This document shows positions 6,290-26,573 of a stretch of 64,000 nucleotides of DNA, one piece after another. Location of the stretch: NCBI GenBank assembly GCA_017864995.1, contig GCA_017864995.1_4097.1; one strand, written 5' to 3'. The notes beneath the pieces are model-generated. The model saw only the letters and a list, made by a program, of their open reading frames with translations, was not told the DNA's origin and ran no database searches. How positions within the stretch are numbered: the first letter of the stretch is position 1; every line of letters begins with the position of its first letter. Both the position numbers and the translations under genes were made by a program. The stretch comes from a phage.

Positions 6290-8230
6290 TAGACAGGGGA
6301 AGCTCCGCAGGGAAAGCATTGGACAGGCTTTAACATATGTTATATATGTTAAAATTCAGCCTGGACAAATGCGATCACTAGGATTCTCCCCAGGCTAAAC
6401 CCCGTAATCATATGTAGTCATAAGTAATCATATATAAACATTTATATGAGCACCGTAGAATCACAGAATGATTATATATGATTCAGTACTGATTATTATA
6501 GACAAGATTACTCAAGAATGCTAGGGAAGGATTCAGTACTGCCCCAAAAGTATTCAGTACTGAAGGTGTCGATATGCCACTAAGTAGGCAGAGGAAGTCT
6601 GCCGTACTTTGTAGTTTCCAAGCTCCTTTTCCAATTTGCAAATTACATCAAATGTAATCAAAAGTAATCACGCAATGATTAGTACTGAATTATTACTTTC
6701 ACCTTAATTACAATTACCCTTTTACCCTTCGGGGTAAAATTCAATTACCCCTTGAGGCTCCAGCAAAAAGTTGGTTAGTACTCCATCCTAAATCTCGATC
6801 CTAAAAATTTTGGAGTACCTATGAAATAAAAGTTGGATCTTCGAAAGTTGAAATTTACGTTGGGACGTTTATGATTTGTGGGATATAATGATGTTTGTAG
6901 TCGGGTAGTTCTCAAGAATATCAGTACTGAAAGATGAAAGAAAGTTATTGACTTTATGATTCAGTACTGTATAATGTTCTACATAGGGTGATGAGTTGCT
7001 GCGAACAATTCATTTACTCTACCTCCTGTCGTGAGACAGTACAGAAAAGATAGTTCCTCCTGTGGTGGTGGTACATCTTTTTGAACCTCATATGAAAATC
7101 GTAATAACAGTACTGATATTAACAGAATGGTGTCAGTACTGATTTTAATCTAAAGCATTATGCCACCAGCTTGTGCTGGTGGATTCCCTCTAACAGTATT
7201 CAGTACTACATGATGGTCTTCATCCTCCTAGGGTAACATAGTGAGGGCTATGATGGCAGTACTGAATACTCCCTTTCAAAAGATAGATCTATGGTATAGT
7301 ACTGACGGATTTTGGGTGTAGTTACCCTGGATGGATTTTGGACGTAGATATGTCTAGCCCTCCAGAAGTCTGGAAGTAAAGATGGCTATCCATCTAGACG
7401 GCTAAACGGCTAGATTTCTGGATGGCTGGATGGCTAGACGTTTGGACGGCTAAACGGCTAGATGGTTACACGTCTGGAAGTATAGACGGCTAAATCAAAA
7501 TTTTATTTTGTTTTTTCCAATAGTTCCCCTACCGCGTGGGGATAGTTTCCCCGCAGTATCTGGTGTTAGATTTTTCTGAATCTGGAATCATTATCTTATA
7601 AACTGGGGGCAATGTCAACGACCTGGACGGATATTTTTAAAAATTTTTTCAGTACTGAATTTTGGGCGTAACTATGCACCCGGTGGGCTTGAGTCTTTCT
7701 CGACTTGATGGAACTATTATACAGTACTGAAAAAATAAAGCAATACCCTGGAAGCAAAAAAGTTTTAATTAATTTGCTTGCTATCCTGGGCCGGACTATG
7801 GTACTATATTTCAGTACTGAGAAAGTGCGTTTACCTGCTAGGGTGCGGGAGTGTATCCTTTTTTTATATCTTGAATTTTGGGCGTAATTCCGCACCCTCT
7901 GGGGTTTCCGCTTTCTCGCGTCTATGTAGTAATTATACGCTTTTTCAGGATCAAGTCAATACCTAAAAACAAAATAATTGAAAATAATTTAACGCGTTTA
8001 AACTGCCCGTAACGCCCTGGAATGATTGGAATGGTGCAAATGTATAGCTTAGGTGTACTAATGCGTTAGAATGCGTCTGAGGCCGTTTTACGGGGTATAG
8101 GGATGATTTAGTGGATTGATTCAGTACTGAATAATAGTACTACTATATAGAAAGATAGTTCCCCTGGATGGTTGCAGTACTGAATGATAGTTTCCCTATA
8201 TAGAAAGAAAACTATTTTAAAAGTATTTGT
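6290..8230. other. ~2 kb non-coding hub with dense palindromes and repeats
   Basis: no RBS-supported ORF; many CAGTACTG palindromes; hairpins incl. TTTTACCC-ttcg-GGGTAAAA at 6720-6739; track ORFs here rejected. Confidence 0.5.
7360..7500. repeat. iteron-like direct repeats (GGCTA core)
   Basis: about 8 copies of r-GA-y-GGCTA-r incl. ACGGCTAAACGGCTAGAT x2 and GTCTGGAAGTA-A/T-AGA-y-GGCTA x2. Confidence 0.5.
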
Positions 8231-10005: not shown

Positions 10006-10252
10006 GCAGTTTACAAATCTTTACAATTGCCGGTATTGACTTATTTTGTCAGTACTGGCATAATGTATTCATTGGCAGATAAGCCGTAGCCCATAGGGTG
10101 CGGGAGTGTATCTATAGCAAAATTAGTTTAGTATAGTTACAATTGTGCACCCGGTGGGTTAGCTGTTGTCATGGGGTATATTATGCCAGTACTTGATAAT
10201 GCTGTCAATACTTTTTTACTATTCAGTACTGAAAACTATTTTTAAAAAGTAC

Positions 10253-11776: not shown

Positions 11777-11998
11777 ATGGCTAATATCACTACTCTTTCC
11801 CAACTGGAAGCACTGGTTAAATCTATGCGGGAACATGCCGACAAAATCGGCGTACAAGATCCAGCCGTTTGCTTCTGCGACGAATTGAATGATGATACCC
11901 TGGTAATAGCAGAAGTCCAGGACGTTTCTAACTATTCCTCGCGTTACACTGGCGGCGTAGCAAATAAAGGCGACTTCTGTTTATACCTTACAAAATAA
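11777..11998 (+). CDS. hypothetical protein (73 aa)
   Basis: start MANITTLSQ after class I promoter plus hairpin GGGAGAA..TTCTCCC. Confidence 0.55.
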   Translation: MANITTLSQLEALVKSMREHADKIGVQDPAVCFCDELNDDTLVIAEVQDVSNYSSRYTGGVANKGDFCLYLTK

Positions 11999-12002
11999 CA
12001 AC

Positions 12003-12035
12003 GCGGGGAGATAATAACTCCCCGTTACTTTTTCA
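12003..12035 (+). terminator. rho-independent terminator
   Basis: GGGGAG-ataataa-CTCCCC followed by TTACTTTTT. Confidence 0.5.
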
Positions 12036-12240
12036 GTACTGAATCATTTAATAGACGGATCTCGGCACCCGGTGGGTTAGTGACTGTTTCGTCTTGATGT
12101 AGTAATTATGCCAGTACTGGATGCACTTGTCAACAACTATTTTTCAAATACTTTTTATTAAAATACTTGCAATTAGTTTTTAAACGCGTATAATGTTTTG
12201 CATAGGGGGAGCGGTTCCCCTGGTAACTAAGGATAATCAA

Positions 12241-12798: not shown

Positions 12799-12826
12799 AG
12801 CCCACCTGGTGGGCTTTTTTGTTTTT
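12799..12826 (+). terminator. rho-independent terminator
   Basis: AGCCCACC-t-GGTGGGCT then TTTTTTGTTTTT. Confidence 0.7.
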
Positions 12827-13535: not shown

Positions 13536-13566
13536 AGCCCACCTTAAACGGTGGGCTTTTTTGTGT
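13536..13566 (+). terminator. rho-independent terminator
   Basis: AGCCCACC-ttaaac-GGTGGGCT then TTTTTTGTGTTT. Confidence 0.7.
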
Positions 13567-14112: not shown

Positions 14113-14256
14113 ATGAAAACTTGTCAATGTGGTCAGAAATCTATTACTGGTTTAAAGCGGGGCGTTGCACTTTGCCAGTACCATTATAATTTACAAGTAT
14201 GGGGTAAAGAATGGGCCGACCAGGTGGAAGCAGCAAAGAAAGCAAAAAGTAAGTAA
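14113..14256 (+). CDS. tiny Cys-containing protein (47 aa, below track cutoff)
   Basis: MKTCQCGQKS...LCQYHYN; own class I promoter plus hairpin upstream. Confidence 0.45.
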   Translation: MKTCQCGQKSITGLKRGVALCQYHYNLQVWGKEWADQVEAAKKAKSK

Positions 14257-14275
14257 AAATATTATCACAGTACTA

Positions 14276-14304
14276 TTGACATAGTTTGATAGTACTGGCA
14301 TAAT
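14276..14304 (+). promoter_or_regulatory. class II promoter (AGTACTaTTGACA-N9-gatAGTACTGg-CATAAT)
   Basis: TTGACA-17-CATAAT flanked by two AGTACT; near-identical copies at 17116 and 25293. Confidence 0.5.
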
Positions 14305-14345
14305 AGATTTTATCAAGACAACATATTAATTTAAGGAATACTAAA

Positions 14346-14749: not shown

Positions 14750-15019
14750 ATGAAAAATATCAGTACTTTAATCGATGCAGGTACTCATGTTCGTCGGTCT
14801 ATGGTTGCAACCAGTACTACAAAACAAGTACCAAGCGGTTATCTTGTATTTGTGTACGATGGTAAACTCCTGGAACGTTCAATCAATTTTGATGTTAAAA
14901 ACAATTGCCGTTTTATTATCTTTAAGCGTGAACAATATAAAATTGATTTACCAGCAAAGCCCATAAGCGGGGCGTACAACGTGCAATCATTGTTTGAACG
15001 TCAACCATACACCTATTAA
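14750..15019 (+). CDS. hypothetical protein (89 aa)
   Basis: MKNISTLIDAG; RBS AAGAGGAA. Confidence 0.55.
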   Translation: MKNISTLIDAGTHVRRSMVATSTTKQVPSGYLVFVYDGKLLERSINFDVKNNCRFIIFKREQYKIDLPAKPISGAYNVQSLFERQPYTY

Positions 15020-15070
15020 TCAAAACATCGTTAGCGGTCGATTTAGGCCGCTTATATTGGGGATTATACC

Positions 15071-15343
15071 ATGAACGTTAATCAAGTACTGAATGAAGTT
15101 GAAAGCATCATTAAACCAATGAAACGCATTGATGCTATGTTAACACCGGAAGAATGCCGCCTTTATGAGCGTTACAGCGTCGAACAAGTCCAGGCGATGG
15201 CTATGGCTACCCCAGCCGTTAAACCGCCTGAGAATGCGTTACAGGACGTTACAGGGGATTATATCATCAATCCAGTACTAGGGAAGATGGCTGCAATCAC
15301 CGAAGATCAACAAGACTACTTAAGCCAGTACTTAAAAGGTTAA
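15071..15343 (+). CDS. hypothetical protein (90 aa)
   Basis: MNVNQVLNEVES; RBS GGGGA. Confidence 0.55.
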   Translation: MNVNQVLNEVESIIKPMKRIDAMLTPEECRLYERYSVEQVQAMAMATPAVKPPENALQDVTGDYIINPVLGKMAAITEDQQDYLSQYLKG

Positions 15344-15348
15344 TTAAT

Positions 15349-15558
15349 ATGCTTACTGTACAGGATAAGATCGACATCTTAAAGGTTAATATGTATGTGA
15401 TTGATGCAGTACCTGGTAAAGTATTTGCATACGATGACACCACTGTAAGCGATTTCTACTATAGCCAGGACGTGGGGGATCTTTCTGTACAGTCGGTTAT
15501 TGAAAACGTAGTTAATGCAGCGTATGAGCATTTACTTTCAAATAGTACTTGCAATTAG
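15349..15558 (+). CDS. hypothetical protein (69 aa)
   Basis: MLTVQDKIDILK; closely follows upstream gene. Confidence 0.5.
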   Translation: MLTVQDKIDILKVNMYVIDAVPGKVFAYDDTTVSDFYYSQDVGDLSVQSVIENVVNAAYEHLLSNSTCN

Positions 15559-15627
15559 TTTTTAAACGCGTATAATGTTTTACATGAAGGGGAGAAATGA
15601 TTCTCCCCACTAATTAAGGAATATGAA

Positions 15628-15774
15628 ATGAAAGCATCAAAAAAGAGTAATACTAAGAAAGCACGTTCACCTTTCGCTGGGGTATTCCCTTTACGTTTCG
15701 TTGATGAAGTAGTTTCCTACCCGCCGGGCCTTACTCCTGAGATGGTAGAAAGTTTGCGTAAATCTAAAAAATAG
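15628..15774 (+). CDS. small basic protein (48 aa, below track cutoff)
   Basis: MKASKKSNTKKARSPFAG...; class I promoter plus hairpin GGGGAGAA..TTCTCCCC upstream. Confidence 0.45.
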   Translation: MKASKKSNTKKARSPFAGVFPLRFVDEVVSYPPGLTPEMVESLRKSKK

Positions 15775-15855
15775 TACTTGCAATTAGTTTTTAGTACTGT
15801 ATAATGTTTTACATGAAGGGGAGAAATGATTCTCCCCAATAACAGGAGAATCAAA

Positions 15856-16008
15856 ATGAAACAATACAACGCTCGGTTTGATGTTACTATCGGTAACGGC
15901 AAAGGTCAATTCTCTTTCAGTACTCGCAAAAGTTATACAGAAAACTTCCTGCGTAATTGTGCACTGACCGCCGCACAAATTAAACATTATTTTCAGGCTA
16001 AAAAATGA
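15856..16008 (+). CDS. hypothetical protein (50 aa)
   Basis: start MKQYNARFD after RBS CAGGAGAA; class I promoter plus hairpin upstream. Confidence 0.5.
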   Translation: MKQYNARFDVTIGNGKGQFSFSTRKSYTENFLRNCALTAAQIKHYFQAKK

Positions 16009-16094
16009 AAACATTAGCTTACTATAGTTCGGCCCTGGTCGGTGCATTGATCGCGGCGTTGTTAGTAACCTATCTATTCTTTATGGTGATTTAA
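16005..16094 (+). CDS. candidate 29-aa single-pass membrane peptide
   Basis: MKTLAYYSSALVGALIAALLVTYLFFMVI; ATGA overlap with upstream stop. Confidence 0.35.
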   Translation: MKTLAYYSSALVGALIAALLVTYLFFMVI

Positions 16095-16238
16095 ATGAAT
16101 CCAACAGGTTTAAACTATAAAAGTTGTTCGGCATTTACGAAAGCAAATAAAGCGAATGCACGTAAAGCGAAAGTACAAGAATACATCAAGCAAGGCATGA
16201 CGCGAAAGGCGGCGATTCTAAAAGCTAAAAATAAATGA
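16095..16238 (+). CDS. small basic protein (47 aa)
   Basis: MNPTGLNYKSCSAFTKANKANARKAKVQEYIKQG; abuts upstream ORF. Confidence 0.4.
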   Translation: MNPTGLNYKSCSAFTKANKANARKAKVQEYIKQGMTRKAAILKAKNK

Positions 16239-16459
16239 AAAAAGTGGTTGACTCCGGTCAGCCATTTTGCTATTATATATTCATTGAGAGATAGCTCACT
16301 AGCCCACAGGGTGCATAAGTGTATCTATTATATAAGTATTGAGTACTGAAAACTATTTTAAAAGTATTTGTAGAAAGTACTTGCAAACTATCTCAATAAG
16401 CGTATAATGTTTTACATCGAAAGGGGAAACGGTTTCCCCTGGTAATAAGGAAACGAATC

Positions 16460-16801
16460 ATGACTATCTCAATTGCTCAATCTAACTTTGAAAATGAAAT
16501 CATCGCCCAGGCACTGCGTTTAAATGATGGTCGGGCCGAAATTAATTACGGTTTCAATTCAGGCGGTTGCGAAAACTATCAGTACTTTGTAACGGCTGAT
16601 GGCGGTGTCCTGGGTATCAATACAGTTATTGTAAACATCCAAAAAATTAATTTCAATGATCCAGACGATAGCCAGTTTTACATCACTGGCGTAGACGTGA
16701 ACTATGAGGATGACTCACTAACTGATGATTACACTGGCGAGCGGTTAGAAAGTGCATACGGTGAAGATGATTATCAGTCCGGTCCAGAAGATTTCGAATA
16801 A
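16460..16801 (+). CDS. hypothetical acidic protein (113 aa)
   Basis: MTISIAQSNF; Asp/Glu-rich C-term; class I promoter plus hairpin upstream. Confidence 0.6.
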   Translation: MTISIAQSNFENEIIAQALRLNDGRAEINYGFNSGGCENYQYFVTADGGVLGINTVIVNIQKINFNDPDDSQFYITGVDVNYEDDSLTDDYTGERLESAYGEDDYQSGPEDFE

Positions 16802-16897
16802 TATAAAAAAATAGTTTGACAATAGATTATAGTACTGTATAATAGTTTACATCAAGGGGAGAGATGATTCTCCCCACTAACAGAGAGAGAAAACAAA

Positions 16898-17110
16898 ATG
16901 GCTAATATCTGCACTGTACTGAAAAATGCAAAACAAGTTTTATTTTCTGATCACGATCATTTAAACAAGGATATTACTGGCGTTCGGAATATCAAAGATG
17001 TAAAAAGTGTTATGGGTATCTATTGCAATATGAAACGTGTTGGAACGTTCGGCGACAAAGTACTATACCAGGCAGGGGATTACAATTTTACACTGACTAT
17101 CATTAACTAA
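16898..17110 (+). CDS. hypothetical protein (70 aa)
   Basis: MANICTVLKNAK; promoter TTGACA-16-TATAAT plus hairpin upstream. Confidence 0.55.
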   Translation: MANICTVLKNAKQVLFSDHDHLNKDITGVRNIKDVKSVMGIYCNMKRVGTFGDKVLYQAGDYNFTLTIIN

Positions 17111-17193
17111 AAATATTATCACAGTACTATTGACATAGTTTGATAGTACTGACATAATAACTTTTATCAACTACACTACTAAGGAATTAAAAA

Positions 17194-17373
17194 ATGGCTA
17201 TCATCGCAAAAACTGAAATCGTTGGTCTGGATTCTATCATCATGACGTTTGAAGATCAAAAAGGTATGTATGTAGTTTCATATGGTGATTATGTTCGGGA
17301 GTATGAAACGGTAGACGAAGCCTTTGAAAGTTATATTCGCCAGGTGAATAAAGCATACGACGACTACCGCTAA
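17194..17373 (+). CDS. hypothetical protein (59 aa, below track cutoff)
   Basis: MAIIAKTEIVGLD; class II promoter upstream; RBS AAGGAA. Confidence 0.5.
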   Translation: MAIIAKTEIVGLDSIIMTFEDQKGMYVVSYGDYVREYETVDEAFESYIRQVNKAYDDYR

Positions 17374-17463
17374 AATATATTACCAGTACTATTGACAACG
17401 TTTGATAGTACTGTATAATAAGTTTTATAAACAGTAGTTAACTTAACCTAAGAGAGAAATAAA

Positions 17464-17607
17464 ATGATCGCACTGGATTCATTCATCGACGCAGTACTGG
17501 CAAAAACTGGCGAGGATCTGACCGCAGAACAATACGCGATGATCGAGCAATGTCAGCAAAACGGTAAATCGGTGAAAGATACTGTTAAGATTATCCGCAA
17601 GATGTAA
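17464..17607 (+). CDS. hypothetical protein (47 aa)
   Basis: MIALDSFIDAVLAK; class II promoter upstream; terminator downstream. Confidence 0.45.
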   Translation: MIALDSFIDAVLAKTGEDLTAEQYAMIEQCQQNGKSVKDTVKIIRKM

Positions 17608-17613
17608 TATTAT

Positions 17614-17643
17614 AGCCCACTGGTTAACGCTGGTGGGCTTTAA
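17614..17643 (+). terminator. terminator-like hairpin
   Basis: AGCCCAC-N12-GTGGGCT then TTTAATC; stem contains GCTGGTGG. Confidence 0.45.
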
Positions 17644-17706
17644 TCATTTACCCTATACAATGCCAGTACTCAACCGTTTATCTCGTTAGAATGCGTTACA
17701 GGACGT

Positions 17707-17919
17707 TTGACAATGATTAGCATGAAATCAGTACAAAAACAAATAGAAACATTATCAAAAATTAAACGTAAACAGTACTCGTTAGAATATACAATCAATG
17801 GTAACTATCATCTAATGAAAGAGAATAATTTCATTGTCATTGATGAATCATTGCAAGTTATTAGTATAGTACTGAAAGCATTAATCAATGACAGAAAAAA
17901 AATTAAAATAATCTATTGA
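17707..17919 (+). CDS. hypothetical protein (70 aa)
   Basis: ORF only; weak RBS and no clear promoter. Confidence 0.3.
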   Translation: MTMISMKSVQKQIETLSKIKRKQYSLEYTINGNYHLMKENNFIVIDESLQVISIVLKALINDRKKIKIIY

Positions 17920-18240
17920 CAATATCCTCCAGTACTGGCATAATACTTACATCAAGACGAGAACGTCACTAACCCATAGGGTGCACAAATGTAACTATAT
18001 AATATCGATCAATAAATGATCAAAAAAGTACTGGATCAATTTAGCATAAGGCGTATAATTCTGATCAATTCTTGATCAAAGGCAATATACGCAGTTGAAT
18101 TTATATAGACAGTACAAAGGCGTTACTATCCGTGGTAATGCTGGTGGATATGTAGTATCATGTGGTTTGAATAAGATTAGCACTAGTAGTATTATTGTAG
18201 CATTACAGTACTATAGTATTTTTATAATGAGGTTAAAATA

Positions 18241-18498
18241 ATGGCAGTAGGATACGCGAAAGACGGGGCCGAACAAGACGAGATTAACGCAGTGATTCAG
18301 GCAGCCGTTAACCACGCTAGAAAGCAAATTAACGCACAAAGAGAATCACTGGTACATTGCCTCGACTGCGGCGATAAAATCCCTGAGAATCGACGCCAGG
18401 CCGTTATAGGGTGCATGTATTGTATTACTTGCCAGGAGGATCATGATAGTACTTTTAAAAGAGATCCGCGTAATTGTTGGCATAGATCTATGAGATAA
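18241..18498 (+). CDS. TraR/DksA-family C4 zinc-finger protein
   Basis: RKQINAQ...CLDCGDKIPENRRQAVIGCMYCITCQ matches the TraR-type C-x2-C-G-x2-IPE-x-RR...C-x2-CQ pattern. Confidence 0.7.
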   Translation: MAVGYAKDGAEQDEINAVIQAAVNHARKQINAQRESLVHCLDCGDKIPENRRQAVIGCMYCITCQEDHDSTFKRDPRNCWHRSMR

Positions 18499-18505
18499 AA
18501 AGTAA

Positions 18506-18533
18506 TTGACAGTACTGAAAGATAGTGTATAAT
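18506..18533 (+). promoter_or_regulatory. promoter TTGACA-16-TATAAT
   Basis: AGTACTG in spacer; upstream of GNAT-like gene. Confidence 0.5.
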
Positions 18534-18562
18534 GTTTTATATCTTAACTGAGGATAGTAATC

Positions 18563-18919
18563 ATGGGAATACAACATATCACGCGTACTACTGACAATGG
18601 CGAGATCACTGGTTATCAGGTACAGGGCAAAGTAGCACAATTGCAGTACTGGTTTGTTAAACGTGGAATCATTGCACCGGATCTTGATTATGACCGTGTA
18701 GCGTTTATTGATTCTCTTTATGTTGATCCTGATAGTCGGGGCAATGGTGAAGGTAACGAATTAATGAATGCCTTTATTGATGCCGCCGATGATTCAGATT
18801 GTATCATCTTAGAATGCGATACGGGAGAAGATAACGCCTTTAATCTTAAAGAATGGTACGAAGGTTTCGGATTCGAGGTATTGATAGATAGTGAATATCC
18901 TATCATGATTTTATCATAG
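18563..18919 (+). CDS. putative GNAT-like acetyltransferase (small)
   Basis: LYVDPDSRGNGEGNELMNAFIDAA resembles GNAT motif A (R-x-x-G-x-G/A); weak call. Confidence 0.35.
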   Translation: MGIQHITRTTDNGEITGYQVQGKVAQLQYWFVKRGIIAPDLDYDRVAFIDSLYVDPDSRGNGEGNELMNAFIDAADDSDCIILECDTGEDNAFNLKEWYEGFGFEVLIDSEYPIMILS

Positions 18920-18996
18920 TACTTGCATTTAGTTTTCAGTACTGTTATAGTACTTGCATCAAGGGGAAATATCTTCCCCTACTAAGAGGAAATAAA

Positions 18997-19185
18997 ATGG
19001 AAAACTTATCAAGTATTTTAGTACAAGATGATTTCGGTAATCCTGGAAGTGCTATCATTGTTCGGGGCAATAAAGCAACGTTTGTTATTGCTGGTGGACC
19101 CGTACAGCGTAGCATTAAAAATAATGCTGTTACCATTAATAATGTACGCTATCGCTTAGATAAAGAATTAATTCATAAACTGTAA
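18997..19185 (+). CDS. hypothetical protein (62 aa)
   Basis: MENLSSILVQDD; promoter plus hairpin GGGGAAAT..TTCCCC upstream. Confidence 0.55.
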   Translation: MENLSSILVQDDFGNPGSAIIVRGNKATFVIAGGPVQRSIKNNAVTINNVRYRLDKELIHKL

Positions 19186-19270
19186 AAAAGTACTGGACAA
19201 TAGATTATAGTACTGTATAATAGTTTACATGAAGGGGAGAAATGATTCTCCCCACTAAGAGGAAAGAAAA

Positions 19271-19483
19271 ATGCAAGGTCAACTAATCGTTCGTAAATGG
19301 TCTGATACTAACGAAAAACCGTGGGATGTACAATACATCGCCCCCAATGGTGAATCCAGATATCAACCAGGTGTAACGCATAGTACTGAGCAATTCGCCG
19401 CCGCTCATCGCGAACGTCTGTTACAATCAATGCAGCAAGGTTCCGGTGAAAAATTCATTCAGGATCATTGGCTGAAAGATTAA
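19271..19483 (+). CDS. hypothetical protein (70 aa)
   Basis: MQGQLIVRKW; promoter plus hairpin upstream. Confidence 0.55.
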   Translation: MQGQLIVRKWSDTNEKPWDVQYIAPNGESRYQPGVTHSTEQFAAAHRERLLQSMQQGSGEKFIQDHWLKD

Positions 19484-19569
19484 AAAGTACTTGCACAGTA
19501 CTGAATAAAGTGTATAATGTTTTATATCGGAAGGGGAATAGTTCCCCTCCGAACAAAGAGGAAAGTATA

Positions 19570-19743
19570 ATGGTCCAGGTAGAATTAACAGTACTGAAAG
19601 ATCTGTTTTATCGGATTGGTACTACTGGCGAATATCCGAAGGGTGATAATGCAAAACTTTACGTATCACTCGACTTATGGCAACGCGAACAATTAGCAAC
19701 AGCCTGGCGTAAAGGCAAAGCAGATAGCGAGGTGAAAGCATGA
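19570..19743 (+). CDS. hypothetical protein (57 aa)
   Basis: start MVQVELTVLK after RBS AAAGAGGAAAG; track start 19468 lies in promoter. Confidence 0.5.
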   Translation: MVQVELTVLKDLFYRIGTTGEYPKGDNAKLYVSLDLWQREQLATAWRKGKADSEVKA

Positions 19744-19889
19744 AAGAATTCTTATTTGAAGTAGTGTTTCAAGGTGTCGGCAATAACCAACTGATTCGAT
19801 CAAGTGGTTATAATGTTAACCAGGCATGGAATAACATTAAACAAATGTACCCGAACGCTATCACATATCGCAACCCGAAAGAAGTTTAA
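19740..19889 (+). CDS. hypothetical protein (49 aa)
   Basis: MKEFLFEVVFQGVGNN; ATGA overlap with upstream stop. Confidence 0.4.
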   Translation: MKEFLFEVVFQGVGNNQLIRSSGYNVNQAWNNIKQMYPNAITYRNPKEV

Positions 19890-20204
19890 AAAATAATTGA
19901 AAAAGGGATTGACTCCGGTCAGTCCCTTTGCTATTATATACGCATAGAAACAAATCAGCCCACCGGGTGCATAAATGTATCTATTGTTTGCTGGTGGCTA
20001 GTACTGAAAACTATTTTTAAAAAGTACTTGCATTGTACTTATAATCAAGTATAATGTTTTACATCAGGACGGGGAACGAAATAAGTAACCCCGTTAAGTA
20101 GTCCAGGAGTAAGACATACGAAAAACTCCCCTGATAAAATAGTTTGACAATAGAAAGTAAACGAGTATAATACTTACATCAACCACTGATAAGGAAACAT
20201 AAAA

Positions 20205-20480
20205 ATGCGGATTCTACTGACAGCTAACGAAATCGAACAAGTACTGACTACTAACCTGGAAGACTGGAAACGTGAAGCAGATATCCAGGCGGTTCAATGG
20301 TTAAATGATAAGTTAACGCCGGATGACTTAAGCAAGATTGTAGATCCTCAATTCTACGAAGATATCCACGACACCGCGTTAAGCGTCGAGGATGTACTAG
20401 ATAAGCACTTTATTGATACTGATTTGCAGGTTTACGGTCGTAAAAACTTTATCACTATTCACGACATTTACAATAATTAA
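20205..20480 (+). CDS. hypothetical protein (91 aa)
   Basis: MRILLTANEIEQ; downstream of leader element copy 2 and a second promoter. Confidence 0.55.
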   Translation: MRILLTANEIEQVLTTNLEDWKREADIQAVQWLNDKLTPDDLSKIVDPQFYEDIHDTALSVEDVLDKHFIDTDLQVYGRKNFITIHDIYNN

Positions 20481-20567
20481 GTATTGACAAAGTATCTTAG
20501 TACTGTATAATAGTTTACATCGAGAGGGGGGAATGGTTCCCCTCCTAACTAAAAGAGAGAAATAAAA

Positions 20568-20750
20568 ATGGCTAAGTGCACTATCTGCAAGAAAGAAATA
20601 GTATTAGTTCCAAGTGCCCGTGAACGTGCCGCTCGGTTCGGTGGCAAAGCGTCAGACTATACAAAAATGTTTACTACCCATACAGCTTGCCAGGTAGCAA
20701 AACGTTCACAAGAAAGCGTAGAATTAATGCGTAAACTTTCCAAAAAATAA
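20568..20750 (+). CDS. small Cys-containing protein (possible zinc ribbon)
   Basis: MAKCTICKKE...HTAC; promoter plus hairpin upstream. Confidence 0.5.
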   Translation: MAKCTICKKEIVLVPSARERAARFGGKASDYTKMFTTHTACQVAKRSQESVELMRKLSKK

Positions 20751-20838
20751 GTATTGACAAAGTATCTTAGTACTGTATAATAGTTTACATCAAGTGAGGG
20801 GAAACGGTTCCCCTCCTAACAAAGAGAGAGAAATAAAA

Positions 20839-21162
20839 ATGGCTATGATCCTTGCCCAGAAAGTAGAATTGAAAATTGTAACCTCCTTTGACATTAACGT
20901 TAATCGGTGGACTGATTCACACGGCAATACTTACCACTCTTGCTACGTGTCTGCGTTAATTGGCGACCGCTGGGAAGACCTGGGACACGAAACCTTTACA
21001 TACGGTTACGGTACACAAGGCGAATACACGGGCTTGGAGATCATTAAAGAAACCGTTATAGGTTTCAACCCGAAAGAAAAAGTTATTCACCGCATCGAGG
21101 AAGAGATCAACAAAGAAATAACAGTTCGCTACCACGATGTAAAACGTAAGAAAGACATGTAA
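20839..21162 (+). CDS. hypothetical protein, paralog of 14346-14669
   Basis: MAMILAQKVEL..NRWTDSHGNTYHSC..FTYGYG..VKRKKDM. Confidence 0.6.
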   Translation: MAMILAQKVELKIVTSFDINVNRWTDSHGNTYHSCYVSALIGDRWEDLGHETFTYGYGTQGEYTGLEIIKETVIGFNPKEKVIHRIEEEINKEITVRYHDVKRKKDM

Positions 21163-21257
21163 TAGAATCCATTTAAAGTACTATTTGACATTGCCCAGAT
21201 AGTACTTTATAATAGACTCTAACTTGTAGTACTAACTCAACCAATAGGATGTATACC

Positions 21258-21653
21258 ATGATTACTAAATTCTACGCTACCCGTGAAGCTGCCCGTATTG
21301 TTGCACGCGAGGAAGGAGCAGCATTTAAAGACATGGGAACGACAGCACCGAAAGGTCAACGCTGGGCCGTACAGTTCAAAGAAATCTCTGATATTGTGAA
21401 TTCACCTGAGCCAGTACTAACAGCAGCAGAACTAAAACGAGCGGATATGCTGGCGGCAATACTTGACGCACAAGATGAGTTTATCGCTGATTCTGATATC
21501 AAAGTACAGGTAAACCACACCGCATGGACTCACGCGGATCACCTGGCAAACCTTAAGCGTCCAAGTGAACTGATTCGCAACCAGAAAGAGATCCGACATG
21601 ATCGTAAGGGTAATCGTGTAACAGTATACAGTAAACGCCGCCAGGTTATCTAA
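21258..21653 (+). CDS. hypothetical protein, paralog of 9421-9687
   Basis: MITKFYATREAARIVAREEGAAFKDMG...RKGNRVTVYSKRR. Confidence 0.6.
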   Translation: MITKFYATREAARIVAREEGAAFKDMGTTAPKGQRWAVQFKEISDIVNSPEPVLTAAELKRADMLAAILDAQDEFIADSDIKVQVNHTAWTHADHLANLKRPSELIRNQKEIRHDRKGNRVTVYSKRRQVI

Positions 21654-21675
21654 TAACTTGCAGTACTAACAACAC

Positions 21676-21700
21676 GGCGGGATCAGTTCCCGCCTTTTTT
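21676..21700 (+). terminator. rho-independent terminator
   Basis: GGCGGG-atcagtt-CCCGCC then TTTTTT. Confidence 0.65.
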
Positions 21701-21714
21701 ATAGGACAAACAAA

Positions 21715-21969
21715 ATGATTAAGGTTCAACTATATAAAGATAACATCTTACGGGTACACTATAAAGCACCGAAGAGAATCATCACAAAGGCCGTACAGCT
21801 TGCTAATGAGTTTATTAATGGTAACCTATTACCTAGGAAGTTAAGCAACGGGAAACTGCGTGTAATCGACGTGGACACTAACAACAGGATAGTAATCGAG
21901 AACACAGGAAAGATAAACCTTTATGAGCATCAACAATACAATAAGAAAATAAAACTAATATCACGTTGA
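21715..21969 (+). CDS. hypothetical basic protein (84 aa)
   Basis: MIKVQLYKDN; RBS AGGA. Confidence 0.5.
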   Translation: MIKVQLYKDNILRVHYKAPKRIITKAVQLANEFINGNLLPRKLSNGKLRVIDVDTNNRIVIENTGKINLYEHQQYNKKIKLISR

Positions 21970-22022
21970 CAGTACTCAATTGTTTTAGTACTATGTACAC
22001 ATACCAACACGGGAGAAACAAA

Positions 22023-22241
22023 ATGAAATTATCTAAAATCGAAAAGAAAACTATTGATGAAGCAGTTAAGCACGGTTATACCTTTCGTAATGATTCACAT
22101 TTTACCAATTTTCAACAAGGGTATCGTACTATTAAAAAACTAATTGACAAAGGTTTATTAGTTGAAGTCAATAACGGTAACGGTATCGAGTATCAACCAA
22201 CACAGGACGCATTTTATTTTAAGAAATATAATATTATCTAA
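22023..22241 (+). CDS. hypothetical protein (72 aa)
   Basis: start MKLSKIEKK; shares a duplicated ~60-nt promoter/leader with 22299 gene. Confidence 0.5.
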   Translation: MKLSKIEKKTIDEAVKHGYTFRNDSHFTNFQQGYRTIKKLIDKGLLVEVNNGNGIEYQPTQDAFYFKKYNII

Positions 22242-22298
22242 TTGACAGTACTCAAATGTTTTAGTACTATATGTACATACCAACACGGGGGAAACAAA

Positions 22299-22541
22299 AT
22301 GATTACTTTAGAAAAACGTATCAAAGAAACTACATCGCTGGTGGAACTGTTAACAGTACTCAAATGTAAAACAACACCATTCAGCACGCCGGACTTTATT
22401 AATATGGTTGATGTTAATGGTCGCTATCGTATCACGGTCGAACAAGGAGCGGCGAAAGTATTCAGTACTAAAAACACGAAGGAAGTGATCCACGCCGTTA
22501 ATGTTAAAAAAGTAGTTGCCATTGATAGTAAAGTACTGTAA
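22299..22541 (+). CDS. hypothetical protein (80 aa)
   Basis: start MITLEKRIKE; promoter/leader 22243-22301 near-identical to 21966-22025. Confidence 0.5.
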   Translation: MITLEKRIKETTSLVELLTVLKCKTTPFSTPDFINMVDVNGRYRITVEQGAAKVFSTKNTKEVIHAVNVKKVVAIDSKVL

Positions 22542-22572
22542 TATAGTTTCATTAACTCAAGGAGAACATGCA

Positions 22573-23157
22573 ATGCGTAATTATACAAAATTCATCCGTA
22601 CACTGTCAGAAATGGAAACCAACAAAGAGATCCTTTCAGCTTGTCGGTTAGCTGACCTGGAGATCATCGGTGCTGGTTCTTCCCGTATAGTTTTCGCTTT
22701 AAATGATCGGTTAGTGATTAAGGTCGCGAATTGTGATGCGGGTGTCGAACAAAATGAAACTGAATGTAAGGTATGGAATTTTTTAGACTATGACCGCCCT
22801 CAGTTGAAACAGTACTTTGCAAAGGTGCATATGCATTTATGCGATCCTGATAATATGTTTATCGTTATGGATCGGTTGAGTACTGCAAGCAAAGGCAGTG
22901 TGAAGCACGTAAACGCGTGCAATGAATTAAAGTACAATATTAAACGTAATGCAATCGAACGCCAGCACCGCTTTGCTGATGCACTACAACACGTTGATGA
23001 TACATTATCAACACTAACGATAAGAGATATCAGAAAACAGAATATCGGCCAGGATCGTAATGGACTTATTAAAGTACTTGATTACGGTTTAACCAGCAAT
23101 ATCTGGAATCAGTACTATAAAAAGCGTGATGTGGCAGCAAGTAAAGTAACACGATAA
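22573..23157 (+). CDS. putative protein-kinase-like protein
   Basis: IGAGSSRIVF (Gly-rich loop), VIKVA (Lys), IRDIRKQNIG (HRD-like loop), LDYG (DFG-like); RBS AAGGAGAA. Confidence 0.4.
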   Translation: MRNYTKFIRTLSEMETNKEILSACRLADLEIIGAGSSRIVFALNDRLVIKVANCDAGVEQNETECKVWNFLDYDRPQLKQYFAKVHMHLCDPDNMFIVMDRLSTASKGSVKHVNACNELKYNIKRNAIERQHRFADALQHVDDTLSTLTIRDIRKQNIGQDRNGLIKVLDYGLTSNIWNQYYKKRDVAASKVTR

Positions 23158-23378
23158 AAAAGATTAAAAAAGGGATTGACTTCGGTCAGTCCCTTTGCTA
23201 TTATATATTCATTGAGAGATAACTCACTGACCCATAGGGTGCGGAAGTGTATCTATTATATAAGTATTCAGTACTGAAAACTATTTTTAAAAAAGTACTT
23301 GCATTGTACTTAGAATCAAGTATAATGTTTTATATCGAGAGGGGGAAATGGTTCTCCCTGGCAATAAGGAATAAAATC

Positions 23379-23600
23379 ATGACTACAATGACTTGCATTT
23401 ACGCTTCCAATCGTCTGAATGATGCGGCCTTTAATGTTGATTCAGAATATCAATGTTATCGGGATGAAAATAAAAAAGTTTTTGTAGTTGATAATAATGG
23501 TTTCCATATTGAATTGCAATCCGGCTTCACTGGCGTTGATGGTAAATCAGTATGGGGCGTACAGGATGATAAAGGTACATATCATTTTAAACGTAATTAA
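23379..23600 (+). CDS. hypothetical protein (73 aa)
   Basis: start MTTMTCIYASN after promoter plus hairpin. Confidence 0.5.
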   Translation: MTTMTCIYASNRLNDAAFNVDSEYQCYRDENKKVFVVDNNGFHIELQSGFTGVDGKSVWGVQDDKGTYHFKRN

Positions 23601-23683
23601 GTATTGACAAAGTATCTTAGTACTGTATAATAGTTTACATCAAGGGGAGAATAGTTCTCCCCAATACAATAAGGAATAAAATC

Positions 23684-24091
23684 ATGTCTACTACTACTAA
23701 TCTCGCTCGGAACATCACTAACGATAAAAATCATGCTGCAATGGTCGCTGGTTACATTGAAGCTATGCAATTCAGTACTGTACATAATGATAACGGCGAT
23801 TACCTGGAAGATTATGAGTTATCTGATGAAGCACGTCAAGCGGCGGTGATTGCATGTTCTCGCTTCATTGAGAAACACGGTAATGATCTGGAAGTAGTTC
23901 GCGGTATGTTTATTGATTACGGTTATGAGCAAGCTGGTCATGATCTGTTCCTTACCCGCGAAGGTCACGGAACTGGTTTTTGGGATCGTGGTTTAGGTCA
24001 CTATGGCGATGTATTCACGAAGTACTGCGAAGAAATCAACGTTTGCGATCCCTATGTAGGCGATGATAACTTAATCTATATGGGCGAATAA
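23684..24091 (+). CDS. hypothetical acidic protein (135 aa)
   Basis: MSTTTNLARN; promoter plus hairpin GGGGAGAA..TTCTCCCC upstream. Confidence 0.6.
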   Translation: MSTTTNLARNITNDKNHAAMVAGYIEAMQFSTVHNDNGDYLEDYELSDEARQAAVIACSRFIEKHGNDLEVVRGMFIDYGYEQAGHDLFLTREGHGTGFWDRGLGHYGDVFTKYCEEINVCDPYVGDDNLIYMGE

Positions 24092-24178
24092 AAGTATTTG
24101 ACAAAGTATATCAGTACTGTATAATAGTTTACATCAAGGGGAGAACTATTCTCCCCACCAATAAAAGGAAACAAAATT

Positions 24179-24451
24179 ATGTCCAGCTACTCCGCTACTA
24201 TGATCATTAAAGATATGAACGGTAATCCTACTTCTGCTGGTGGATCATTTGGAAATATTAACTTAGATGGGCGGTTATCCATGCAATCAGCCATCGATGC
24301 AGCGAAAGAAGTTTTTAAGAATGAATGTACTGTTAGTAAGCTGGATTATATGGGATTCGCTATCGAGAAAACTACTCGTTTTGTGAACTACAAAAATCCA
24401 CTGATGATTGATACTAACCTGAAAGCTAACGAAGTGGGGTACTTATTATGA
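24179..24451 (+). CDS. hypothetical protein (90 aa)
   Basis: MSSYSATMIIKD; promoter plus hairpin upstream. Confidence 0.55.
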   Translation: MSSYSATMIIKDMNGNPTSAGGSFGNINLDGRLSMQSAIDAAKEVFKNECTVSKLDYMGFAIEKTTRFVNYKNPLMIDTNLKANEVGYLL

Positions 24452-24639
24452 CAGTAGAAGAAGTTAAAAAAGTACTGGCAGTACTACGATATCATAATCA
24501 TTGCAAGGTGAAGAATGATCCTGATTATCTTGATTCATCCCTGGAGGAAGACACCTTGAACGCTATAAGCCATATGCAGACATTAGCAAAGCGTATGACT
24601 GAAAAGAACATGCCGGACTATATCGGAAATAAAATTTAA
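24448..24639 (+). CDS. hypothetical protein (63 aa)
   Basis: MTVEEVKKVLAV; ATGA overlap with upstream stop. Confidence 0.5.
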   Translation: MTVEEVKKVLAVLRYHNHCKVKNDPDYLDSSLEEDTLNAISHMQTLAKRMTEKNMPDYIGNKI

Positions 24640-24726
24640 AAAGTACTTGCATTGTAGTTAGATTAACGTATAATGTTTTATATCGAGAGGGGGAAATGGT
24701 TTCCCCTCAAGTCCAGGAGATACACC

Positions 24727-24990
24727 ATGAACACTATCGAAATCACTATCAATGCACACGTATACGACAACGTAGTACTGCAAACTACTATGACCGCCAA
24801 TGATACCAGTACTTTGCGGAATACTGTTATTAGTGCCGTATGTGCCGCTATCGGTGATGTCGCCCTGGAAAATGCAAAACACGTAAACGATGGTTTCACT
24901 ATGTGCAAACGTGATAACGCAAAACATATCATCGTGGAAGGTTACGGCGGTGTAGAATTTAATGTTTATATGAAAAAAGTACTTGCATAA
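24727..24990 (+). CDS. hypothetical protein (87 aa)
   Basis: start MNTIEITINAH after RBS CAGGAGA; track start 24673 lies in promoter. Confidence 0.55.
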   Translation: MNTIEITINAHVYDNVVLQTTMTANDTSTLRNTVISAVCAAIGDVALENAKHVNDGFTMCKRDNAKHIIVEGYGGVEFNVYMKKVLA

Positions 24991-25057
24991 TAACTAAAAC
25001 AAAGTATAATGTTTTGCATAGGGGGAGATATCCTCCCCCACTAAAAGGAGTAATAAA

Positions 25058-25282
25058 ATGGCTAACTTTGATGAACTGATGCGGGAAGTAGCTAACCTGG
25101 CAGAAGAGAAGAAATCATTCGATTCTATCTATAACACCGCTCACCGTGATTCAGTACTGGCATGTAACCAGGAACAAAAAGATGAACTAATCGCCACCTA
25201 TCATGAAGCATGGAAGTACTACCGACAATGGGAGAAAGAAGAAAGTGAGTCTACCATTGACGGCCTCAATAATCTAATCTAA
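25058..25282 (+). CDS. hypothetical protein (74 aa)
   Basis: MANFDELMREVA; promoter plus hairpin GGGGGAGATATCCTCCCCC upstream. Confidence 0.55.
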   Translation: MANFDELMREVANLAEEKKSFDSIYNTAHRDSVLACNQEQKDELIATYHEAWKYYRQWEKEESESTIDGLNNLI

Positions 25283-25358
25283 AAGTTTTATTTCAGTACT
25301 ATTGACATAGCTTGATAGTACTGATGTAATAACTTTACTAACTACAAGGGGAAACATA

Positions 25359-25616
25359 ATGGATCAGTTCACACAATATCGGGTAAATCCTCAAGCTATG
25401 GCCTACGTAGAAGACCATAAAACGTTACCAGTACTGCAACCAGTTAAAGGCCATATCTATCGTGCAATGTCGTGGTGTACGGCCCAGGATGGCTATAAAA
25501 CCGTAGCCGTTGGTATGTATTGCGGTAATGGTGAATGGTTTGATCCAAATAATCCGGTAGCCATTGACAGTACTGAAAAAATGAAATGGGCCGACTACAT
25601 CGAAGATATTTCATAA
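25359..25616 (+). CDS. hypothetical protein (85 aa)
   Basis: MDQFTQYRVNPQ; class II promoter upstream. Confidence 0.55.
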   Translation: MDQFTQYRVNPQAMAYVEDHKTLPVLQPVKGHIYRAMSWCTAQDGYKTVAVGMYCGNGEWFDPNNPVAIDSTEKMKWADYIEDIS

Positions 25617-25706
25617 AAACTATTTGACAGTACTAACCAGTAATGTATAATGTTTTACATAGAGCGGGGGAATAGTTCTCCCGCCAATAGTTTGGAGTAA
25701 AACATT

Positions 25707-25907
25707 ATGTCTATCGCTATCGCCCTGGTTGAAGTACTGAAAGAAGCTAAAGCCAACCAGATCGACGTAAAGATCCAGGAACTACAAAACGGCTTAATCG
25801 GCTGTACTTGTACCGCTGGTGGAGCGGCAGACTATCGAGAACACGAATCACTCGAATCACTGGTTCGGTATCTTACCATGATCGTTGATGATTGGAGAAT
25901 CATCTAA
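25707..25907 (+). CDS. hypothetical protein (66 aa)
   Basis: MSIAIALVEVLK; promoter plus hairpin GCGGGGGAA..TTCTCCCGC upstream. Confidence 0.55.
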   Translation: MSIAIALVEVLKEAKANQIDVKIQELQNGLIGCTCTAGGAADYREHESLESLVRYLTMIVDDWRII

Positions 25908-26152
25908 CAAAAAAGAATAAAAAAAGGGATTGACTCCGGTCAGTCCCTTTGCTATTATATACGCATAGACAAAAACTAGCCCACAGGGTGCATAGGTGTA
26001 TCCAAAATATATAGTTAATAACGGTGAGTAACTATCTGCTGGTGGAGTGAAAACTATTAATAAAAAAGTATTGACAAAGTATATCAGTACTGCGATAATG
26101 TATCTCGTAGGGCGGCAATGGTGCGACGGCCCACAAAGTTAGGAGATTCACC

Positions 26153-26488
26153 ATGAGTACTTCAATCGCTATCGTTAAAGCTTTCATCCGTACCAATGAT
26201 TCATCTGTATACTGCGACGGCCTTGATCGTAAAGTATCATTCTCATTCATTGTCGCACAAACGGCTGACGGTTCTCGGTATATCCTTAACGATAGCGAAG
26301 TAAATCATTACTACTTCACTAAAGCTACTGGCTTTAAACGCATCGATGCTGATGTAGTATACGCTAAGATGAATAAGCTGGTAGATAAGATTAACGCTAA
26401 AGGGACTATCGATTTACTGTACTGGACCGAAACCGATCCAGAATACGGCTCTCACCGTTACCTGAATCCAGGTATTAAAATGAAATAG
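26153..26488 (+). CDS. hypothetical protein (111 aa)
   Basis: MSTSIAIVKAF; RBS AGGAGA. Confidence 0.55.
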   Translation: MSTSIAIVKAFIRTNDSSVYCDGLDRKVSFSFIVAQTADGSRYILNDSEVNHYYFTKATGFKRIDADVVYAKMNKLVDKINAKGTIDLLYWTETDPEYGSHRYLNPGIKMK

Positions 26489-26573
26489 TACTTGCATAGT
26501 ACTTAGATTCATGTATAATGTTTTACATAGAGAGGGGGAAATGGTTCTCCCTCCTAAATTAAGGAGTTTTATC

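Follow-up and report, generated by a model that had tools for sequence, protein, structure and literature searches.

A promoter-linked RNA motif repeated in the terminal repeat of Rak2-like jumbo phages

The locus and its surroundings

The DNA analyzed here is a 64,000-nt stretch of a phage contig (GenBank assembly GCA_017864995.1; hereafter, the window), in which the plus strand carries nearly all open reading frames (ORFs) and no tRNAs were found. A 12-kb stretch around the feature under study is 93–97% identical to Asteriusvirus jumbo coliphages (vB_Ec-M-J, ph0011, G17, and relatives of PBECO4/121Q), and, judged by these alignments, the source of the window is a PBECO4/121Q-type (Asteriusvirus) jumbo coliphage. 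Eleven records labeled as Campylobacter phages, with C. jejuni as host, also match positions 15000–27000 by megablast; these labels may reflect mislabeling of the host or contamination of the records. In vB_Ec-M-J, a direct terminal repeat (DTR) is annotated at positions 1–21,525, and position 8,363 of that record aligns with position 15,000 of the window, which would place the DTR at roughly 6.6–28.2 kb of the window if this 95%-identical phage is a reliable guide.

The inferred DTR interval is rich in promoter-like sites (103, compared with 66 ± 8 in shuffled sequences), many of which match all 12 hexamer positions, while the 20 kb that follow are at chance level (111 vs 111). A “standard” early module recurs here in about 26 copies between 6941 and 26541 (repeat families D1–D8). 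It consists, in order, of an A/T-rich upstream element, AAAGTACTTGCA, 16 bp, TATAATGTTTTACAT, a 5′-UTR hairpin GGGGAnnnnnUCCCC, ACUAA, a Shine-Dalgarno sequence, and a gene. Another promoter family (TATTGACATAGTTTGATAGTACTGrCATAAT, repeat D18; Table 1) has neither the box described below nor a GGGGA hairpin.

Several other features of the window were observed. Downstream of the DTR, long arrays of paralogous small genes occupy 28.3–33.8 kb and 44.5–54 kb (repeat families D9–D16 and D20); these genes overlap or abut, with no recognizable promoters or terminators between them. Near the inferred left end of the DTR lies an ORF-free stretch (approximately 6.3–8.2 kb), in which an array at 7393–7492 with a periodicity of 8, 16, and 24 nt (GGCTAAACGGCTAGATGG...) could represent iterons or a terminase/end-recognition region. 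Chi sites (GCTGGTGG) are strongly clustered between 7163 and 26045, all within the inferred DTR, where about 0.2 would be expected per strand (Table 1); this clustering may protect the ends against RecBCD. A hairpin at 7163–7182, some 500 bp from the inferred left end, is made up of two opposed Chi sites, and in relatives, the promoter spacer of the unit described below often contains Chi. Finally, the palindrome AGTACT occurs 281 times in the whole window (about 20 expected; e.g., 7108–7141, 10050–10057, and 16344–16351), and CAGTACTG occurs 64 times (0.6 expected). AGTACT lies both inside and outside coding sequences, is part of most promoter spacers, is absent at 28–32 kb and 36–40 kb, and is nearly absent at 40–44 kb; it could be a binding or modification site.

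A terminator-like hairpin with a built-in −35 element

A sequence-only reading of the window had described a module repeated at 16240–16345, 19901–19985, 23168–23265, and 25921–25995, and all four copies are indeed present there, each directly after the end of a gene. They contain an A-run, a hairpin of 12 pairs, and a T-rich tail, and are in this respect terminator-like, as had been proposed; the GenBank record of G17 lists homologous hairpins as ARNold terminators. The four hairpins lie no more than about 20 nt past the stop codon of the preceding gene, have a UCCG or UUCG loop, and contain 4–5 G-C pairs. Compensatory stem changes distinguish the first copy from copies 2–4 (AAAGTGG.../...CCATTTT vs AAAGGGA.../...TCCCTTT).

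The promoter that had been noted within the hairpin could also be confirmed: TTGACT-17-TATTAT is found in all four copies, with the −35 hexamer as part of the hairpin. In the first copy, the TTGACT at 16248 lies in the 5′ arm and loop. The 33-mer spanning hairpin and promoter gave 3 matches at up to 3 mismatches, where none were expected. The 3′ arm ends in 3–4 T residues before the tail (GCTATTATAT) and passes a 5-T-in-8 rule. The tract is interrupted, however, since its bases also serve as the promoter spacer and −10 element. On the reverse strand, the tails of these hairpins contain 5–7 U residues and are more canonical.

A terminator-embedded −35 element is one of several promoter contexts, and was detected in at least 22 of 96 collected copies, all on the gene strand, in a scan with an 80-nt flank too short to catch 2 of the window's own 4. 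Equivalent units with compensatory changes in the outer stem are present in K64-1, RaK2, CBB, GAP32, Munch, and uncultivated relatives. Junctions of terminator and promoter are in themselves ordinary elements; what is unusual here is how compact the junction is.

The constant unit is a promoter followed by an RNA motif

Downstream of each hairpin lies a conserved box, whose core, GCCCAYNGGGTGC, has 13 matches in the window at up to 2 mismatches, compared with 1.2 ± 1.1 expected. A covariance model (R1) was built from 25 gapless copies (alignment A2) and run with filters off; in the 64 kb, it recovered 11 units, all within 7.6–26.0 kb, and nothing else that was credible. Each unit is named here after the coordinate of the first G of GGGTGC (Table 1). 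Two palindromic box matches at 12800 and 12802 are not units, and appear because the stem of a gene-end terminator resembles the box (GCCCACC); this stem (AGCCCACC...GGTGGGCT) is common to the terminators at 12799–12815, 13536–13557, and 17610–17640, with a Chi site at 17629.

Every GGGTGC box in the window lies 26–36 nt past the −10 element of a promoter on the same strand, and in 9 of the 11 units, this promoter matches 10–11 of the 12 hexamer positions. Among the 96 distinct copies collected, 92 have a promoter with at least 9/12 matches whose −10 element ends 26–36 nt before GGGUG, compared with 8% of random positions; the distance has modes at 32–33 and 27 nt. The box is on the strand of the promoter in all 11 copies of the window and in all 96 collected copies.

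The earlier reading had listed boxes that occur alone (7836, 10088, and 17958). No terminator hairpin precedes these, but each has a promoter of its own. What had been taken for a related element, GCACCCGGTGGG (7676, 10146, and 12064, with an additional copy at 7892), is the box in reverse complement, that is, a promoter-and-box unit on the minus strand. The notion of a portable terminator-promoter unit holds insofar as a terminator-like hairpin, a sigma70-type promoter, and a conserved non-coding RNA segment downstream can be recognized in silico; the part that stays constant, however, is promoter plus RNA motif, rather than terminator, promoter, and box together. The description given by the earlier reading was accurate, and its interpretation was half right. 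By the counts and comparisons given here, the module is a real, non-random, and evolutionarily conserved feature.

About 240 nt downstream of unit 17979, at 18241–18498, lies a gene for a DksA/TraR-type C4 zinc-finger protein (PRK11019 in G17). The leader between the two contains repeated TGATCAA palindromes and a Chi site.

Table 1. Coordinates of the units and associated features. Positions refer to the window unless a phage or locus is named.
Feature	Position	Strand	Details
Terminator-like hairpin, unit 16309	16241–16268	+	After gene ending at 16238; 12 pairs; loop TCCG; tail GCTATTATAT
Terminator-like hairpins, other three named copies	19902–19929, 23169–23196, 25923–25950	+	12 pairs
Embedded promoters	16248–16276, 19909–19937, 23176–23204, 25930–25958	+	TTGACT-17-TATTAT; TG two bases upstream of −10
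RNA motif, unit 16309	16282–16332	+	64.5 bits; P1 UGAG/CUCA; rCCC-ACA-GGGUGC; 3′ segment UGUAUCU
RNA motif, unit 19965	19943–19988	+	Short-P1 variant; 37.7 bits; hairpin and promoter 19902–19937
RNA motif, unit 23237	23210–23260	+	68.9 bits; hairpin and promoter 23169–23204
RNA motif, unit 25986	25964–26009	+	Short-P1 variant; 41.8 bits; hairpin and promoter 25923–25958
Unit 10096	10036–10119	+	No terminator hairpin; promoter TTGACT-17-CATAAT 10036–10064; motif 10070–10119; 51.3 bits; plus-strand partner of convergent pair
Unit 10152	10129–10208	−	Promoter TTGACA-17-CATAAT 10208→10180; 31.1 bits; converges on 10096 (+), 56 nt
Unit 17979	17916–18002	+	Promoter TTGACA-17-CATAAT 17916–17944; 41.3 bits
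Unit 12070 (stand-alone)	11994–12133	−	Promoter 12133→12105; motif 12096→12047; 31.2 bits; reverse side of bidirectional terminator 12024→12004; predicted sRNA of about 105 nt, 12098→11994
Unit 7841 (degenerate)	7778–7866	+	Weak promoter TTGCTA-18-TACTAT 7778–7807; motif CCU-GCUA-GGG; 12.4 bits; P3 (7840–7859) then T7, making a terminator-like hairpin
Unit 7897	7874–7959	−	Promoter 7959→7932; 25.6 bits; converges on 7841 (+), 56-nt spacing
Unit 7681	7658–7743	−	Promoter TTGCTT-16-TATAAT 7743→7716; 45.1 bits; about 1 kb from inferred DTR left end, pointing toward it
Stand-alone terminated copies in relatives	K64-1: 7931, 15312; Munch: 2637, 11330	−	Further copies in L006 and L019
Fur-box-like palindromes	L027: 24949–26345 (K64-1 record 224,949–226,345); L005: 86–6762; L006: 2822–8383; L008: 958–1304; L016; L019: 6091		GAnAATGATAATCATTnnC
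D18 promoter family	14250–14316, 17104–17170, 17366–17432, 25276–25342		No box, no GGGGA hairpin
Chi sites (n = 10)	7175, 13644, 17629, 18140, 19090, 19990, 22337, 24236, 25815, 26038	+
Chi sites (n = 2)	7163, 13582	−

Anatomy of the RNA motif

The predicted start of transcription is the A in a conserved CAT that lies about 7 nt past the −10 element. The predicted transcripts carry a covarying 5′ hairpin (P1), an invariant rCCC-AYA-GGGUGC (P2), and a 3′ segment, UGYRUCY, that can pair with GGGUGC (P3). P1 is a stem of 3–5 bp that begins 3–6 nt after the likely start site and is closed by an A-rich loop (AGAUAA, GCGAAA, AGAACAA). Its stems vary freely, and include UGGC/GCCG, GGAG/CUCC, ACCG/CGGU, AGCA/UGCU, GACG/CGUC, ACAAA/UUUGU, and others. 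In a model-based alignment of 91 distinct sequences, which was fitted to the model and favors the structure, the four P1 pairs are 93% paired with 3–5 pair types each, compared with 25–56% in controls in which the whole structure was slid; the raw listing of copies shows the same P1 variation. In a minority of copies, P1 is reduced to a UAG/CUA stem of 3 bp or replaced by an A-rich stretch without structure. The box units look like derivatives of the standard early leader, with which they share the CAU start, a 5′ hairpin, and ACUAA.

A linker, yuR, connects P1 to P2, which can adopt a 4-bp hairpin of the form rCCC-(AYA or four nt)-GGGU. Its three C-G pairs are essentially invariant, while the r-U pair is A-U in 46 sequences and G·U in 42, and the spacing between CCC and GGG tolerates loops of 3 or 4 nt. 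The invariant stem is without covariation support. The loop that follows GC is often GNRA-like, and leads into U12-G13-Y14-R15-U16-C17-Y18, which is antiparallel-complementary to G1-G2-G3-U4-G5-C6-N7.

The helix that this would allow, P3, is 89% paired, and its outer five pairs are 92–100% paired, through one-sided alternation of G-C with G·U and of U-A with U·G. Columns 14 and 15 are variable in 24–31% of copies, yet show no transversions (0/96) and keep their pairing with G5 and U4; in the neighboring columns, transversions are frequent. Support from variation is found for the inner pairs only (U4-R15 and G5-Y14), and for the three outer pairs, which compete with P2, the evidence is conserved complementarity only. 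P2 and P3 overlap on GGGU, with mean energies of −3.4 and −3.5 kcal/mol, respectively, over 96 copies. G·U pairs are common in P1 and P3, and would become C·A mismatches on the opposite strand. The folding energies of single sequences are unremarkable over the whole motif (z-scores of −0.3 to −1.8), so the conserved property is sequence rather than stability. A mutual-information signal calculated on ungapped copies was dominated by paralogue subfamilies.

Several further candidate features of the RNA were rejected. A long-range 5′-3′ closing helix, or a pseudoknot that would join the P1 loop (AGAUA) to the 3′ segment (UAUCU), is seen in several copies and in minimum free energy folds, but is a composition effect, with a complementarity of 4.62 for matched partners and 4.64 ± 0.09 for permuted ones. 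A leader peptide or mini-ORF with GGGUG as Shine-Dalgarno sequence would be possible in at most 59% of copies, in which AUG, GUG, or UUG can occupy columns 11–13; column 13 is a G in 57 of 96 copies, and the frames, read by eye in individual copies, run from one to about a dozen codons and are unconserved. Sites of the CsrA, HutP, and RegB type (GGA, UAG, GGAG) are present in only a fraction of copies. Lastly, a sigma-dependent pause through a −10-like TAGGGT was discarded, since copies with an ACC or AUU loop lack the required A.

Genomic contexts of the copies

The copies occur in four contexts. In the four copies first noted, the terminator-embedded promoter and motif lie upstream of a standard early promoter and its gene. 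In a second context, copies lie on the strand opposite to all protein-coding genes, with a terminator formed by a hairpin and U-tract 30–45 nt after the motif, and are predicted to yield RNAs of about 105 nt. A promoter, no ORF, and a Rho-independent terminator, as a stand-alone small RNA (sRNA) gene would have, are found together at 12133→11994 of the window and in several copies of relatives, but not in the four copies first noted. The sequence-only reading had raised the possibility that the module launches a small RNA, which is best matched by opposite-strand copies that run into a bidirectional terminator, such as unit 12070; the four copies themselves have no terminator before the next promoter and gene, and their motifs are therefore leaders unless the RNA is processed.

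Convergent pairs form the third context. In the window (7841/7897 and 10096/10152), in CBB (three pairs), and in GAP32 (two pairs), the distance from GGGTG to GGGTG is exactly 56 nt, a spacing thus found in three genera. In K64-1 and Munch, the distance is 67–74 nt, and a Fur-box-like palindrome lies between the partners. In the fourth context, found in one relative (L019, 12623, plus strand), the motif is directly followed by a Shine-Dalgarno sequence and ATG.

The Fur-box-like palindromes match the consensus at 15–17 of 19 positions and lie exactly between the convergent box units. They cluster in the left part of the repeat in the Klebsiella and Salmonella phages and in uncultivated relatives (Table 1), and none were found in the E. 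coli phage window, CBB, or GAP32. Iron sensing through Fur, a roadblock, or titration of Fur are possible roles.

Distribution across phages and bacteria

By blastn, the module was found only in Rak2-like jumbo phages, with hosts in Escherichia, Klebsiella, Salmonella, Erwinia, Pectobacterium, Cronobacter, and Serratia. Likewise, scanning IMG/VR for the exact pattern gave only contigs of about 350 kb from the Rak2-like group and two fragments. Model R1 detected 95 copies in 280 kb of related DTR-region DNA, and copies of the motif were found in phages of Klebsiella, Salmonella, Cronobacter, and Pectobacterium as well as in uncultivated relatives. In the complete genome of K64-1 (346,602 bp), the model matches only at 226.3–243.4 kb, a single stretch of about 17 kb, and in CBB, all copies lie within the annotated repeat of 22,456 bp.

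A bacterial origin of the motif was rejected on the basis of the 80 loci listed and searched of at least 120 found in a scan of bacterial and archaeal genomes: the matches were single, are consistent with chance, and were rejected by the covariance model, with two marginal matches of 20–22 bits and none that were convincing. Rfam gave no matches in the 64 kb at gathering thresholds, with sub-threshold chance matches on two units at E ≤ 10, and no paper describing the element was found in the literature. In PA5oct, a related member of the clade, two abundant non-coding RNAs were detected in the DTR by RNA-seq (PMC7318152); homology to these was rejected, as the box is absent from them. As far as these searches reach, the RNA motif represents a family that had not been described before and that is restricted to the terminal repeats in Rak2-like jumbo phages.

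A candidate early riboregulator and its alternatives

The element works on or through its transcript, because its orientation to the promoter is strict, its variation tolerates G·U pairs, its loop length varies, and P1 covaries. Five readings of its role were compared, and rank in the following order: a riboregulator acting in trans, an attenuator acting in cis, a polymerase-modifying signal, an operator in duplex DNA, and, last, an R-loop primer.

We tentatively favor the first of these, in which the RNA would be an immediate-early, multi-copy riboregulator that acts through its invariant 12-mer. The sigma70 RNA polymerase of the host would read each unit immediately after the terminal repeat enters the cell, and the first 45–50 nt or so of the RNA would contain P1, the yuR linker, P2, and the alternative P3. 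In the four embedded copies, the −35 element lies within the terminator hairpin of the preceding cluster, so that incoming transcription would end and unit transcription would start within 40 bp. The RNA itself would be the product, either as a terminated sRNA of about 105 nt (unit 12070), from convergent pairs, or as the 5′ end of longer early transcripts. It would most likely act in trans, which we prefer because the opposite-strand copies and convergent pairs have nothing downstream to regulate. The weakly structured 12-mer could then be the surface that a conserved partner recognizes, whether that partner is a protein or a complementary RNA, much like the shared seed of sibling sRNAs, while P1 would protect the 5′ end. 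The two abundant DTR RNAs of PA5oct, although they lack the motif, also speak for this reading. Some observations fit less well, however: the four copies first noted are leaders rather than discrete sRNAs unless they are processed, the P2 stem does not covary, the folding energies are ordinary, and the overlap of P2 and P3 looks like a cis-acting switch. A Pfam search for a partner protein among 20 ORFs of the DTR gave only DUF7249 and sub-threshold matches, none of them informative.

This overlap leads to the second reading, a cis-acting attenuator or conformational switch, which we consider possible but doubtful. P2 (rCCC:GGGU) and P3 (GGGUGCN:UGYRUCY) would be mutually exclusive, and a factor that binds P1-P2, or the kinetics of folding, would decide whether P3 forms and hence whether polymerase that set out from the unit's promoter would pause or stop ahead of the early promoter and gene that follow. 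The near-equal energies of two helices that share GGGU agree with such a switch, as does the maintenance of the outer five P3 pairs by one-sided changes; opposite the Gs, U is preferred to C, as would suit a helix kept weak on purpose, and the plus-strand copies do precede early genes. A tract of U5–7 comes after P3 in some copies, and the hairpin at 7840–7859 was flagged as terminator-like. It is, however, the only one of the 11 window copies to pass a terminator scan, and about 85% of copies have an AUWRUWU or AAAAUUC tail after P3 instead of a U-tract. P3 is also too weak for a canonical intrinsic terminator, its three outer pairs lack support from variation, and the stand-alone and convergent copies offer an attenuator nothing to control.

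It is unlikely that the motif is a promoter-proximal signal that modifies polymerase, by processive antitermination or by loading of a factor at a programmed pause, in the manner of HK022 put, lambda nut, or RfaH ops. Its fixed orientation close to the promoter would suit this role, and U4-G5-C6-R7 is similar to TGYG, one half of the consensus sequence for the elemental pause. Moreover, the last unit (25986, plus strand) lies at most about 500 nt upstream of the last two recognizable promoters (26071–26099 and a family copy at 26485), past which extends a promoter-poor, tightly packed gene array of more than 37 kb. Antitermination makes little sense, however, for convergent pairs and for non-coding-strand copies that face terminators, and the units show no similarity to put, no ops or boxA, and no accompanying RfaH/NusG homologue, as detailed below.

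A role as operator in double-stranded DNA, at which a protein of phage or host would bind at about +20 to +45 and act, for instance, as a roadblock, is very unlikely. P1 would then be only the generic 5′ stabilizer hairpin of all early transcripts of this phage; the standard early promoters do have a 5′ hairpin followed by ACUAA, the 12-mer is invariant amid weak structure, and the 56-bp spacing of convergent pairs is fixed. This is countered by the strict orientation to the promoter in 96/96 copies, a CCC-GGG spacing that varies by 1 bp, a site that is not palindromic, and a 3′ segment whose changes all preserve RNA pairing, with T rather than C opposite G. Least probable is an R-loop or primer RNA for replication or recombination in the terminal repeat, comparable to T4 oriF/oriG with their promoter and DNA-unwinding element: a strong promoter, a G-rich RNA segment followed by AT-rich DNA, the restriction of the units to the DTR, and the clustering of Chi in the same region would fit, but 11 copies in both orientations are unlike known origins, and several are terminated within about 100 nt.

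Returning to the riboregulator, a more far-reaching version is conceivable, although we regard it with some skepticism. The motif would represent a new class of riboregulator, a bistable RNA of about 50 nt made from at least 20 promoters per genome (counting both repeats) within seconds of entry and before any phage protein, which either captures a conserved host factor (a nuclease or a chaperone, for instance, or even RNA polymerase) or reprograms the polymerase that transcribes it. If true, host takeover in Rak2-like jumbo phages would begin with a step that involves RNA only, and an RNA active ahead of all phage proteins would be an uncommon device for RNA-first takeover or anti-defense. 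If the cis-acting switch is the true reading, it would account for the coordination of about 40 strong promoters and terminators arrayed over 20 kb.

The Rak2/PBECO4 group of jumbo phages is under development for therapy, and the early program of these phages is essentially unannotated. A conserved, multi-copy, promoter-linked RNA motif that is absent from Rfam marks the terminal repeat in at least 4 genera, and the analysis supplies predicted 5′ ends, a covariance model, and mutable sites (CCC, GGGUG, and UCY). In addition, the terminator with a built-in −35 element offers a compact, reusable insulator part for synthetic biology.

Comparison with known systems

Overlaps of terminators and promoters in phage early regions resemble the hairpins described here, in which a G+C-rich hairpin of the UNCG type with a T-rich tail directly follows a stop codon and is overlapped by TTGACT-17-TATTAT; besides the G17 annotation, homologous hairpins are annotated as stem_loop in GAP32. 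The present form differs in that the −35 hexamer lies inside the 5′ arm and loop, an arrangement conserved in at least 4 genera, and in that the T-tract is interrupted.

The put RNA of HK022 is similarly a short RNA structured by small hairpins, located just downstream of strong early promoters and transcribed by host RNA polymerase. Unlike put, the present motif occurs in at least 11 copies per repeat, on both strands, in convergent pairs, and in stand-alone units that face terminators. R1 reaches no more than 12.8 bits (E = 0.065) across the entire HK022 genome, and does so away from pL and pR. Lambda nut (boxA and boxB) and the RfaH ops element share with the motif a conserved element of about 12 nt beside a small hairpin with a purine-rich loop, close to the promoter and dependent on orientation. 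In contrast to these, the units have no boxA or ops, and neither a NusG/RfaH paralogue nor an N-like protein was identified for this phage group. The boxA consensus (YGCTCTTTA) gave 32 matches (29 ± 5 expected) and ops (GGCGGTAGnnTG) gave 19 at 2 mismatches (13.8 ± 3.9 expected), none of them in a unit, and tblastn with RfaH found nothing in this phage group.

Sibling sRNA families such as Qrr and OmrA/B are multi-copy sRNAs that share one seed. The resemblance lies in paralogous small units with an identical short core, variable flanking hairpins, and, in some cases, Rho-independent terminators with a U tail; the present core differs in being partly self-paired, many copies have no terminator of their own, and all are located in a phage terminal repeat.

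Finally, SPO1 and T5 (in its pre-early region) carry host-takeover modules in their terminal redundancies. For these, a dispersed, conserved non-coding RNA motif has, to our knowledge, not been described; what the jumbo phages have in common with them is that the direct terminal repeat is long and densely filled with strong promoters of the host type, terminators, and very small early genes.
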